Source of the DNA: a virus
Lineage: Duplodnaviria > Heunggongvirae > Uroviricota > Caudoviricetes
Virus record (IMG/VR): IMGVR_UViG_2529292904_000011
Location: 1-8,563 of that record
DNA: 8,563 bases
Direction: 5' to 3' (one strand)
The position numbers are program-made. Numbering within the stretch: position 1 is the first letter of the stretch; every line of letters begins with the position of its first letter. Below are positions 3,001 to 8,091 of the stretch, piece after piece.

Positions 3001-6000
3001 ATATCGTGGCTGCCGGTTATTACGGGGCGGCATCCCGGACATCGGCCAACTGGACGTCAGCAGACCGTGCGAGCCATTTCAGTGCCTGGGCACGGCGTGG
3101 GATTATTGCAGACAGAATGGCCTCGGCTATCCTGTCGCAGGCAGGGCGCTCACAGGCATTTATTGCCGGTGTAAAACCGGAGAACACACCATCAGCAGGT
3201 GGCTCTACGTCGCCGGATGACTCATCCCTGGAATCGATATCGCTTCTGGCCTCCGCCGGCGATGTTGCTTCTCAGGGGTGGAGTATTACCGGGGGCAGCG
3301 TTCAGTTATCGGATGGCGTACTGAGAATTGTCAAAGAGAGCGGTAAAAGCTGGATACTATCGCATCCGGTGAAGAATGCATCCTCACTGCTGAGCCGGGG
3401 AGGGAAGCTGACCTGTAAGTTCCGTCTGACTGGTGCTCTGACAAACAACCAGTTTGGACTGGGGCTTTATCTGTACACAGACGCTCCTGTTCCTGATGGT
3501 GTGACGATAACGGGGACTGGTGATCCGTTCCTGATGTCGTACTTTACGCAGACCACCGACGGCAAACTGAATCTGATGCACCACAGGAAGTCAGGAAACA
3601 CGAAGCTGGGGGAATTCGGGAACTACAGTAACGACTGGCAGGCGCTGGAGCTGGTGTTCACCGCCGGCAGTGCCACGGTTACTCCGAAACTGAATGGAGT
3701 GGCTGGCCCGGCATTCCAGGTTATAAAAGACAGTCTGACACTGGGACTGAATGCGCTGACGCTGACGGATGTTACAAAAAATGCAGCGTATGGCGTTGAG
3801 ATAGAAAGTCTGGTGCTGGAGATAAATGCACCGGCAGCATAATAAAAAAAGCCAGCGACTGACCTGAAAGAAGACGCTGGCTAAAAGGCCTTATATGTTT
3901 GTAGAGACTTATTTTTCACAGACAGCAATGATGCCTGTCAATATATTATCAATATGCGGATTGTTTCAGTTACAGATGCTTTATTAAGGAAAAAACAGCC
4001 AGCACTGACTTTCGGTGGAGAGGTGCTGGCTCAAAAGGATAGATGTACTTCACATGTTGCTTCTATATGGCAGTACATTTTCTGACAGACAGTGACGGAT
4101 GTTGTCAAGATATTGTGTCATTTATAACCTGAATCAGGGGAGGCCGGAATGTTATCTGGCATTTTTAGCAGAGCCTGAATGCCATAATCACGGCTCCCGG
4201 CGTTGGCCGTCAGTGGGTGACACTGGCGGCTTTTTTGTTTTTCTTTACTTTCATTTTCTGTCGGCGGTGACGGAGACATACATCAGATGGAAAAAATCAC
4301 AACAGGTGTGTCATACACCACGTCAGCGGTGGGGACGGGATACTGGTTACTGCAGCTGCTGGACAAAGTCTCTCCGTCCCAGTGGGTGGCAATAGGTGTG
4401 CTGGGAAGTCTGCTGTTTGGCCTGCTGACGTATCTGACAAATCTTTATTTCAAGATTAAAGAAGATAAGCGTAAGGCTGCGAGAGGTGAATAATGTCGCC
4501 GTCATTACGCAAGGCTGTTGCAGCTGCTATTGGTGGTGGGGCTGTTGCCATAGCGTCTGTGCTCATCACTGGTCCAGGTGGTAACGATGGTCTGGAAGGT
4601 GTCAGCTACATACCATACAAAGATATCGTTGGCGTATGGACTGTATGTCACGGACACACCGGAAAAGACATCATGCCCGGTAAAACGTATACCGAAGCAG
4701 AATGCAAAGCCCTCCTGAATAAAGACCTTGCCACGGTCGCCAGACAAATTAACCCGTACATCAAAGTCGATATACCGGAAACAACGCGCGGCGCTCTTTA
4801 CTCGTTCGTTTACAACGTGGCGCTGGCAATTTCAGAACATCGACGCTTCTTCGCAAAAGTAAACCAGGGCGATATCAAAGGCGCATGTGATCAGCTACGG
4901 CGCTGGACATACGCTGGCGGTAAGCAATGGAAAGGGCTGATGACTCGCCGCGAGATTGAGCGTGAAGTCTGTTTGTGGGGGCAACAATGAGCAGGGTAAC
5001 CGTTATTATCTCCGCTCTGGTTATCTGCATTATCGCCTGCCTGTCATGGGCTGTTAATCATTACCGCGATAACGCCATTACCTACAAAGCGCAACGCGAT
5101 AAAAAAGCCAGTGAGCTGAAGCTGGCGAACGTGACAATTACTGATATGCAGGTACGCCAGCGTGATGTCGCTGCACTTGATGCCAGATACTCGAGGGAAT
5201 TAGCCGATGCGAGAGCTGAAAATGAAACTCTGCGTGCTGATGTTGCCGCTGGTCGTAAGCGCCTGCGCATCAACGCCAACTGTCCAGGCTCCTTGCGTAA
5301 AGCCCCCATCACCTCCGGCGTGGGTAATGCAACCGGTCCCCGACTGGCAGAAGCCGCTGAACGGGATTATTTCATCCTCAGAGAACGGCTGATGGCAATG
5401 CAGAAGCAACTGGAAGGAGCACAGGAATATATCCGTACCCAGTGTATACCGTGATGTTTTGTTATGAAGGTGTTACTGGTAACATTAAGGTAATTTAACA
5501 AAGAGTCAGTTCCGGACTTTATAGTGTGCTCAGTTCATGGCCAAAAACGATTTCTGTGATAAATATTTTGAATATTATTTACAGGTAAATGGAGTGGGGC
5601 GCATGGATAGAAATATTACAATAGAGTATGAAGTATATGCCCGTATTGTATGGGCAGAGAAGGCAAAAACACGGTAATTCCGTGTGTTGCCATGATACCT
5701 GATTGGCAGAATAGTTGTTTGGTTTTGAGTATATAGTCAGCGTTTTTTGTTCAGTAATTGCCCCCTCAAAAAATAATAAAATAAGGTGATTATTTTTGTT
5801 TATTATTTAGTTTTTTTTGTGTGTTATTTTATTGTTTTTGCGTGGTTTGTTTTTTATTGTTATTTCATTAAGGGAAGGTAAATTCAGGATGGCAGTCTGT
5901 AGATAATCGGAGGTCACTTATGCTACATGATCACCTGGCAGAATGTCTGGAGAAAAAAGGACTGTACCGGAGAGCAGCTGAACGATGGGCAAAAGTGATG

Positions 6001-8091
6001 GTACAGCTAAGTGATGACCAGAAAAGAAAAGTGGCGGCACAGAAACGAGCAGAGTGTTTGCGTAAGGCGCGCCGGACTCCGGTTTCACCGATGAACCTGA
6101 CAGAAATAAAACAAGCGGTCAACAGACTACATTCTGAGTTGGGAATGGGATTTGAAGAGCGGCGGGTATTCCGACGATATAAAGGGACAGGAGAACAGAA
6201 TACGTCCGGAAACGCGCGGTCAAAAAAATGCTAAAAAATATCTGAGAGAGTTATTGCCTGTTACCATAAGAAAAAGCGACTTTAGTGGTCGCTTTTTGTG
6301 TCATATATAAGTCGTTTAAGTAAACCTGTCTGAACAGGTGCTCTGGTCGTGTTTGTCTTTGTTGGGTACAAATTGAGAATATTTTTCATTAATTAATCTT
6401 CTTCTGCAGGCTTCAATAACCCACGCTGAAAAATTACCTGAACCTTTCTGGTCAAGAGCGATGTTAATTTGTTCAATCATCTGGTTTGGAAATCGGATGT
6501 TGCGGGTTGTTGTTCTGCGGGTCCGGTTTTTCGGTGACATTTTCTTTCCTCTGGTGACAAGCTATATGGCGAGGATTTTACATGGCCGTGCTTCGTACGT
6601 TACCGGGCAGAATCAAAACTCTGAATACCCGGCGGGTGAATGTCCTGAAGGGTGAACAGCGTCGGGTCAGTGGCAGTGCCCGGGTTTCCCTCAAGCGTCG
6701 TATCTGGCTGAGGGATGCCGGACAGTGCTGTCTCTGTGGGCGTGTGGTTGACCTTTGTGACAGTGAACTCGATCACCGCATTGCACTTCAGTTCGGTGGT
6801 GGTAATGAGGAGACGAATCTCTGGACGCTCTGTACCGAATGCCATCGCCAGAAGTCAGTCAGTGAAACGGCGAGTGGTATGCCGGACCCGACGCTGCCGG
6901 AGGTCATGGCAGGGCAGACGATATCATCGGACTGTGACCCGCCCCGGGGGGGGGATCATCCGGCGAAAAAAACGATCGCCCCGGACACCGCCCCCCGTCT
7001 CATGCAGAGAAAAAATTCCTGTTTCAGGCCAGTTAACATGTTAACTGGCTGCCCGGGCATTTTTTCGGTTTTTATCTTTATTATTCAGTTTGTTGTGCGA
7101 AAAAAATGTTAACTGGCTTTTTCAGCAAATGTTAACCAGGCAGCAGTTAACATTTGCGGCATGAGACGCCGGGAAAAATGGGCTGAACCATACCCGGCTG
7201 AGTGCGTTATGGACCCGGGAGGAGGCTGTGCTGACAACGCAAAAACGAAAATTTGCGCTGGCGCTCATGTCCGGGAAAAACAAAACAGCGTCAGCCCTTG
7301 CCGCCGGTTATTCGGCGAAGACCGCCAGGATTAAAGGCTCGCAGCTGGCAAAAGATCCGGAGGTGCTCGCGTTTATAGCCCGTAAACAGTGCGAAACGGT
7401 GGAGGTGGATGAGGTTCCTGTTTACCGGCAGAAAAAATCAGAGCAGGAGGATAAACCCCGTCGCCGTGAGGTGGCTGCAATACCACAGCCGGACGAAACA
7501 AATCCGGAGATGCCTCCGCCCGCGGTGATATCTCATGGTATTGAATATATGGAGGATGGTCTTCCCGATCCGGTGAAAGCTATGGGGCAGATCCTGGTGG
7601 AAAACCTGATAATTGACCCGAAACTGGCACTGGATGCGGCCTGGCGACTGGCGCAGTTCACACACCATAAAAAAGGCGATGCCGGTAAAAAATCGGCAAA
7701 AGGTGATGCCGCGAAAAAAGCGGCTAACCGTTTTTCGGTGCCACCATCTCCCCGACTGGTGGTGAATAACCAGAATGAGGAAAGCGGATGATACCTGTAT
7801 GGAGCACGGCATGTCCGGACTGGGCAGAGCGCCTGAAAAAGGGACTGTCGATTATTCCGGCTCCGATTTATCCGGACCAGGCTGCACATGCACTGGCGAT
7901 TTTTAAACAACTGCGGATTGTGGATGCACCGGGTAGCCCGACGTTCGGGGAGTCCTGCGCACAGTGGGTGTTTGACCTGGTGGCGGCCCTGTTTGGCTCC
8001 TATGATGCGCAGACCGGTGTACGCCATATCAAGGAAGTTTTTATCCTTATCCCCAAGAAAAACAGTAAGTCCACGCTGGCCGCGGGGATCA

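Follow-up and report, generated by a model that had tools for sequence, protein, structure and literature searches.

Described pch and perC loci

The subject of this work is a pch gene of the PerC family and the AT-rich region that precedes it, both located in a stretch of 8,563 nucleotides (positions 1 to 8,563 of the IMG/VR virus record IMGVR_UViG_2529292904_000011), which is referred to in full as the window. The founder of the family (Pfam PF06069) is PerC, encoded on the pEAF plasmid of enteropathogenic Escherichia coli (EPEC). PerC and Pch belong to the same protein family and have the same target, LEE1/ler in the enterocyte-effacement locus (LEE); perC occupies the third place in a plasmid operon (perABC), whereas pch is a stand-alone prophage cassette. 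Cargo genes of lambdoid late operons are known as morons, with bor in lambda and stx in the Stx phages as examples, and the concept, reportedly defined by Juhala and colleagues in 2000, is also applied to the prophages of enterohaemorrhagic strains. The closest described loci, which were used as the reference set, are in E. coli O157:H7 Sakai: its group-1 pch genes, annotated as pchA (prophage Sp4), pchB (Sp11) and pchC (Sp14).

The pch genes activate ler and the LEE (Iyoda and Watanabe, 2004, as cited in PMC4456613), and at LEE1 and further virulence promoters Pch binds to AT-rich DNA and lowers the occupancy by H-NS and StpA (Fukui, 2016; PMC4764244). The prophage-to-host link from PerC homologues to the LEE via ler, which had been proposed in the first-pass annotation of this DNA, is therefore already published for these very genes (PMC4456613 and PMC4764244). 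The published inputs to pch transcription are LrhA, Lrp/butyrate and NtrC/sigma-S; pchA and pchB respond to LrhA but pchC does not, and the group-1 transcripts rise upon SOS induction. Additionally, according to the summary in PMC7769764, an anti-Shine-Dalgarno segment in the coding region masks the ribosome-binding site (RBS) of pchA, and the small RNA (sRNA) DicF frees this site at low oxygen. The pch element and the function of Pch have been established since 2004. Only mildly new in the present locus are a hypervariable T-rich tract lying between nearly invariant flanks and the pchA/pchC mosaic structure of the window copy.

Identity of the pch gene

From gene calls, Pfam matches and RefSeq annotation, the window was recognized as the late region of a lambdoid prophage. 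The first-pass annotation had placed a PerC-family regulator downstream of the spanin genes, behind a gap with no long open reading frame (ORF). Its coordinates were exact: Rz ends at 5454, the PerC ORF occupies 5920–6234 and the gap measures 465 bp. The gap holds a single ORF of 46 codons (5537–5677), which failed a coding test, and pch lies directly 3′ of Rz/Rz1 in the late region. The features that define the locus are the following.

4975–5454, plus strand: Rz (i-spanin), Pfam Phage_lysis match with an E-value of 2e-46; upstream flank of the cassette.
5207–5392, plus strand: Rz1 (o-spanin lipoprotein), inside Rz in another reading frame, Pfam Rz1 match with an E-value of 1e-18.
5466–6303, plus strand: mobile pch cassette (regulatory region, pch and terminator), approximate extent taken from the break points, about 840 bp.
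5920–6234, plus strand: pch, gene of a group-1 (PchA/B/C) transcriptional activator of the PerC family, 104 aa long, identified by Pfam PF06069 and comparison with Sakai.
6271–6299, no strand assigned: bidirectional intrinsic terminator (A5-GCGAC, loop, GUCGC-U5), folding energy −14.8 kcal/mol, z = −2.76.
6316–6540, minus strand: YlcI/YnfO-family (DUF3950) gene, Pfam DUF3950 match with an E-value of 1e-19 and RefSeq annotation; downstream flank, outside the cassette.

The family assignment was borne out, since the ORF matched the Pfam PerC profile over its full length (E-value 2.2e-44; 150.1 bits against a cut-off of 22.6 bits), residues 1–89 aligning with positions 1–89 of the 90 in the profile. 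In RefSeq, hundreds of genomes carry the same sequence under the annotation PerC family transcriptional regulator. The coding sequence (CDS) was identical to that of Sakai pchC (0 of 315 nt different) and differed from pchB at 2 nt and from pchA at three, the encoded protein differing from PchA at two residues (L6V and M58V). By this comparison the ORF is a group-1 Pch. Substitutions among the copies of the CDS comprised 22 synonymous and 14 non-synonymous changes. A search of the genome contigs with a single Pch protein returned only two loci, and no relative with a solved structure could be detected by sequence. Activation of LEE1/ler by the Pch of the window would be expected by analogy, from the literature on the near-identical Sakai genes.

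The locus resembles pchA, pchB and pchC of Sp4, Sp11 and Sp14 in encoding a protein of 104 aa, in having the same 465-bp spacer after Rz/Rz1 and in ending with the same terminator. The difference is that the window copy is a mosaic, in which a pchA-like upstream region is joined to a pchC-type CDS: the upstream region showed 4 differences in 295 nt and 2 in 125 nt from that of Sakai pchA (6 in 420 nt). As a pchA-like spacer precedes a CDS identical to pchC, these alignments suggest recombination between paralogous pch copies.

Extent and distribution of the cassette

The cassette was always located 3′ of Rz/Rz1, in a slot that contains other DNA in prophages lacking pch. In pch-less prophages with a similar Rz, the similarity to the window ended at 5444–5465, at the Rz stop codon, and the left break point overall fell at approximately 5444–5478. 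The right break point lay at approximately 6303, directly 3′ of the terminator, in several independent contexts that included a plasmid copy beside an nleH pseudogene. In the pch-less O157:H7 strain PNUSAE146743 (L111, positions 806–1167), the slot between Rz and ylcI was filled with approximately 360 bp of unannotated, unrelated DNA, and the similarity to the window restarted at ylcI. An exactly empty Rz–ylcI junction was present nowhere in the genome collection, the slot always holding some cargo.

Of 5426 complete E. coli genomes, 672 carried the cassette, at a median of three copies and always with at least 80% of its full length. When the spacer alone was used as a query, it matched the same 687 records as the spacer together with pch; hence, the spacer was never found without the gene. 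The ler gene was found in 696 of the 5426 genomes, a number near that of the cassette when counts, not per-genome overlap, are compared, and these similar counts fit the known association with LEE-positive strains.

The terminator at 6271–6299 folded better than shuffled sequences and was unchanged across a six-copy alignment; this hairpin can serve as the terminator of pch as well as of the ylcI-like gene that converges on it. The AT-rich composition was limited to the spacer and did not extend to the neighbouring phage genes. Hence, the cassette is composed of a 465-bp AT-rich non-coding control region, pch and a bidirectional hairpin terminator. The moron status proposed in the first-pass annotation stood up, with a left break at the Rz stop codon, a right break after the terminator and unrelated DNA in the slot of the pch-less prophages. 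With high confidence, the region is a classical lambdoid-prophage moron with a group-1 pch gene, placed in the cargo slot between Rz/Rz1 and ylcI/terminase. A discrete insert between linked genes and a terminator of its own were both observed, as were a conserved hexamer pair (TTGTTT-17-TATTGT), a candidate for the moron's own promoter, and other candidate pairs; regulated transcription of pch in lysogens is documented in the literature. The likeness to the morons of lambdoid late operons comprises insertion between conserved late genes, an own terminator, a probable own promoter and a distinct composition, and would extend to expression in the lysogen with read-through upon induction. Unlike bor or stx, pch encodes neither a surface protein nor a toxin but a transcription factor whose target is a chromosomal island.

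Composition and allelic variation of the T-rich tract

The spacer (5455–5919) had a GC content of 33.3%, compared with 49.3% for the 8563-base window. The two features of this region on which the following analysis is centred are listed here.

5776–5870, plus strand: T/G-rich, C-poor tract, the hypervariable part of the cassette, defined by composition and allele comparison.
5832–5860, plus strand: candidate sigma-70 promoter, with a −35 hexamer TTGTTT (5832–5837), a 17-bp spacer and a −10 hexamer TATTGT (5855–5860), inferred.

The strand-asymmetric tract of about 95 bp reported in the first-pass annotation was confirmed as the most skewed stretch of the window. It consists of 63% T, 16% G, 19% A and 2% C (18% GC) and holds the highest T and the highest T+G fraction of all 95-nt windows, the T content lying approximately 5 standard deviations above the mean. 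A C-free run of 73 nt was found at 5768–5840, the second longest in the window being 30 nt; given the C frequency of the window, a run of 73 nt is expected approximately 1e-4 times in a sequence of this size. The composition of the tract is far beyond chance.

An alignment of the tract and spacer was built from 93 copies (63 unique) obtained from IMG/VR contigs and E. coli genomes. The tract was the least conserved segment of the cassette: its identity to the window was 0.47–0.72 in the pchB-type, A25-type and other alleles, and in the alleles with a diverged tract the flanking spacer and CDS had an identity of 0.96–0.99. Its divergence was 3–19 times that of the left intergenic DNA (odds ratio; p down to 3e-15). 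The changes comprised differences in the length of T runs, indels, a deletion of about 40 bp and one to three tandem copies of the 19-nt unit TTTATATTTTTGTTTGTTG. Three, two and one copies of this unit were observed at approximately 5805 in the otherwise similar IMG/VR alleles L033, L063 and L047, respectively, and the deletion was observed in L012, over window positions 5808–5848.

Nevertheless, on the same strand every tract allele contained 43–59% T and 1–11% C. In the distant pch homologues of E. albertii and an O55:H7 plasmid, only the proximal 130–150 nt were in common with the locus, and these were 77–80% AT and T-skewed; plasmid PerC-family genes that are 80% identical shared only about 28 nt 5′ of the start codon. 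Since all of the alleles and the distant homologues were T-rich and C-poor, the constraint on the tract is largely on composition and not on exact sequence.

Candidate promoters and the role of the tract

The hexamers TTGTTT and TATTGT were kept across four allele classes whose spacers are unrelated. Among 61 unique copies, they were separated by 17 bp in most and by 16, 18 or 19 bp in a few, with two copies lacking a match, and the aligned position in E. albertii read ATCACA-18-CATTAT. The core promoter of pch is most likely this pair in the 3′ part of the tract; transcription would then begin near 5867, giving a leader some 53 nt long. It is plausible that the AT-rich island drives pch. The T and A tracts 5′ of the core promoter would then form a composition-dependent upstream region, either UP-element-like or a target of nucleoid proteins, and the left spacer could provide further regulatory inputs.

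As a tentative reading, the tract may be a fast-evolving promoter module that sets the expression levels or the regulatory inputs of the several pch copies in a genome. Such a module would change by homopolymer slippage, by gain and loss of the 19-nt unit and by exchange of alleles between prophages. In the upstream region of Sakai pchB (L003), a perfect TATAAT was observed at the position aligned with approximately 5838–5850, inside the promoter spacer of the window allele; given this hexamer, alleles of the pchB type may use a different or an additional promoter.

Binding of H-NS to the spacer is likely in general terms, judged from its AT-richness. The high-affinity H-NS motif used in the scan, reportedly that of Lang and colleagues from 2007, was not enriched, with a single one-mismatch site in the spacer (5492–5501) and none in the tract. 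The tract contained few TpA steps. In a wedge model, the curvature peaked at approximately 5767, at the switch from an A run to a T run, and this peak was the maximum of the window (36 degrees, about 4 standard deviations); the AA/TT power at 10–11 bp fell short of significance (p = 0.14), and nothing extreme was seen in the 120-bp end-to-end ratio of the curvature model. In the accessible parts of the literature, chromatin immunoprecipitation of H-NS is mentioned in general statements for phage-borne virulence genes.

Several points weigh against the picture of a moron driven by a proximal promoter in an H-NS-bound island. The proposed −35 is weak (three of six positions), and the pair ranked only 18th in a composition-corrected position weight matrix (PWM) scan, in which better-scoring pairs were found at 5687–5715, 5758–5787 and 5495–5525. 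The natural deletion of about 40 bp in L012 removes the proposed −35. No statement on H-NS specific to the pch promoters was found in the accessible literature, which offered general statements only, and any co-occurrence of pch and ler within genomes is deduced from counts.

Because better-scoring pairs lie upstream, the T-rich tract could instead belong to a long leader. According to this main rival, which we regard as doubtful, an upstream promoter (for example, TTGCCA-17-AATAGT with a start near 5722, or TTAACA-19-TATAGT with a start near 5532) gives a long 5′ leader that is U-rich and C-poor and contains the tract, and the tract acts at the RNA level, through binding of ribosomal protein S1 or Hfq, mRNA stability or an effect on translation. 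Besides the higher scores of the upstream pairs, an unstructured leader would tolerate the indels and repeat-number changes of the tract, and the term "leader region" is used for pchA in reviews. However, the distant pch homologues lack the left spacer and still have the proximal AT-rich 130–150 nt, and TTGTTT and TATTGT are conserved, together with their spacing, within an otherwise hypervariable tract. Furthermore, the listed Hfq-crosslink peaks include none in the three Rz–pch spacers of Sakai, although multi-copy mapping may hide one.

Alternatively, the tract could have no specific function and be a low-complexity, slippage-prone and fast-drifting spacer, the real control elements lying elsewhere in the 465 bp. 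The high variability of the tract, the most variable part of the cassette with its changing homopolymer lengths, 19-nt duplications and 40-bp deletion, is what such drift would produce. This explanation is unlikely, as it leaves unaccounted for the strong T-richness and C-poverty on the same strand in every allele and in the distant homologues, and the two hexamers that outlast the turnover at a fixed spacing.

Ribosome-binding site and anti-RBS element

Two elements bear on the translation of pch.

5909–5914, plus strand: Shine-Dalgarno sequence (GGAGGT), separated from the ATG at 5920 by 5 nt and conserved throughout the copies and the distant homologues.
6008–6023, plus strand: anti-RBS element inside the pch CDS, identified by predicted pairing and complementarity to DicF.

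In the predicted fold of 5867–6060, UAAGUGA (6008–6014, within pch codons 30–33) pairs with UCACUUA (5914–5920), the stretch from the Shine-Dalgarno sequence to the start codon, with a probability of approximately 0.78. The adjoining ACCAGAA (6017–6023) is an exact 7-nt complement of nucleotides 1–7 of DicF; the DicF sequence was taken from Sakai Sp4, as it was not found beside dicB in Sakai Sp14. The strong RBS claimed in the first-pass annotation was thus upheld in its sequence, GGAGGT being strong, but was qualified by the predicted fold, in which it is largely paired with codons 30–33. Given this predicted pairing, the strong RBS of pch is probably masked by default. The elements of the window fit, as modelled, the published DicF–pchA mechanism: as in the riboregulation described by Melson and Kendall (2019), the window copy has an RBS-masking CDS segment and a complement of the DicF 5′ end, a likeness drawn from a summary of that work and not from its published nucleotides.

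The left part of the spacer

The remaining features of the spacer lie to the left of the tract.

5455–5760, no strand assigned: left intergenic part, found only with pch, with several promoter-like hexamer pairs (PWM candidates at 5495–5525 and 5687–5715).
5537–5677, plus strand: ORF of 46 codons, most likely not a gene, although some annotations list a hypothetical protein here (WP_001345149.1, phrog_2157).
5662–5691, no strand assigned: imperfect palindrome GGCAA..ACACGG-TAATT-CCGTGT..TTGCC, which on the minus strand reads as a terminator-like hairpin followed by TTTTTG.

The left spacer was variable at 27–36% of its sites, compared with 11% in the CDS, and it was absent 5′ of the E. albertii and plasmid pch homologues. 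From the alignments, no purifying selection on it was apparent beyond linkage to a recently spread cassette. Two identities considered for it were rejected: a perB or plasmid per-operon remnant, since the plasmid homologues share only the 28 nt or so before the start codon, and Esr41, which is located elsewhere, in OI-43.

A minus-strand sRNA of about 100 nt, running from a promoter-like site (5802–5773) to the hairpin at 5685–5669 and its U run and possibly regulating pch or other genes, was also considered. Promoter-like and terminator-like sites are indeed found on that strand, and the minus-strand fold of the window allele was better than those of shuffled sequences (z = −3.46). Nevertheless, the long-range helix was missing in other copies, and the hairpin carried uncompensated changes in most allele classes, the stems of the palindrome being mutated without compensation in the pchB, pchC, A25, L023 and L047 copies. 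In RNAalifold, no pair was compensatory and the covariation term was +0.08. Rfam returned nothing in the spacer, either with the whole window or in a permissive scan of 5350–6400, and the 63 orphan Hfq peaks mapped in Sakai all lay outside the three Rz–pch spacers. Such an RNA is very unlikely, and an Hfq-type sRNA gene in the spacer was rejected, as the fold is not conserved, shows no covariation and is absent from the orphan peaks published for Sakai from Hfq crosslinking and analysis of cDNA (CRAC).

The least probable of the alternatives is a real 46-aa protein gene at 5537–5677 (phrog_2157/WP_001345149.1) co-transcribed with pch. Most copies have an intact ORF, some RefSeq genomes annotate it and it has a PHROG of its own (a match that reflects copies of the same cassette). 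This reading was rejected because substitutions were 23 non-synonymous against 9 synonymous, variable sites were distributed 11/11/9 over the codon positions with no third-position excess, natural copies carry premature stops, a lost start codon or frameshifts, and the ATG at 5537 has no Shine-Dalgarno sequence before it and the product no Pfam match. Outside the tract, coding and RNA-structure constraint is absent from the spacer.

Neighbouring genes and other observations

The left part of the window encodes, in order, a phosphatase, the Q antiterminator, transfer RNAs (tRNAs), a SASA/DUF1737 esterase, a holin, a lysozyme and Rz with the embedded Rz1; to the right follow the 465-bp gap, the 104-codon ORF, the convergent YlcI/YnfO-family gene, an HNH endonuclease gene and the small and large terminase genes. 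The gene order around pch matches that of RefSeq-annotated O55:H7 and O157:H7 prophages, and none of the complete genomes searched contains the whole of the prophage backbone that surrounds the pch of the window.

In the tRNA cluster at 1135–1368, 3′ of Q, Rfam detected three tRNAs (1135–1206, 1215–1287 and 1294–1365) and ARAGORN two, with the anticodons Asn(gtt) and Gly(tcc); the tRNAs at this place in the Sakai and O55:H7 prophages are those for Ile and Arg. In Sakai Sp4, the Hfq-bound sRNAs EcOnc05, EcOnc08 and EcOnc21 have been described from the interval that separates the tRNAs from the esterase gene (Tree, 2014, Table S2), and the equivalent stretch of the window lies at approximately 1400–1880. 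The HNH endonuclease ORF (6582–7112) has 176 codons. As its relatives are annotated with about 121 codons (366 nt) or as a pseudogene, its 3′ part may be a fusion or a read-through.

The large terminase gene matched O55:H7 at 100% until 8143, where the match broke, and its ORF stops at 8159. Past 8143–8144, the genomes that still match carry annotated IS3-family transposases, and an Rfam match to the "isrC Hfq binding RNA" (150 bits; 8212–8334, plus strand) was found at the start of the inserted DNA (8144–8563). The inserted element was compared with the IS629 copy of Sakai Sp4 and is not the same element. The prophage is probably defective in packaging.

Biological meaning of the pch moron

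In the lysogen, the host would control the transcription of pch through the gene's own promoter. Since pch sits within the Q-antiterminated late operon, the rise of the group-1 transcripts upon SOS induction is interpreted as late-promoter read-through. Translation would be gated by the anti-RBS/DicF switch, and Pch would relieve the silencing of ler by H-NS and StpA at LEE1, turning on the LEE type III secretion system.

The gene described here belongs to the prophage-encoded master switch, Pch, for ler and LEE type III secretion in enterohaemorrhagic E. coli (EHEC) and atypical EPEC. Given the cassette, the window very probably comes from an attaching-effacing E. coli or from a phage circulating among such strains. 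The natural alleles of the tract, with their different repeat numbers and T-run lengths, may bear on the differential tuning of the paralogous pch copies. If the tract is indeed a tuning module, it is the promoter that diversifies and not the protein, and this could explain the different response of pchA and pchB, compared with pchC, to LrhA.

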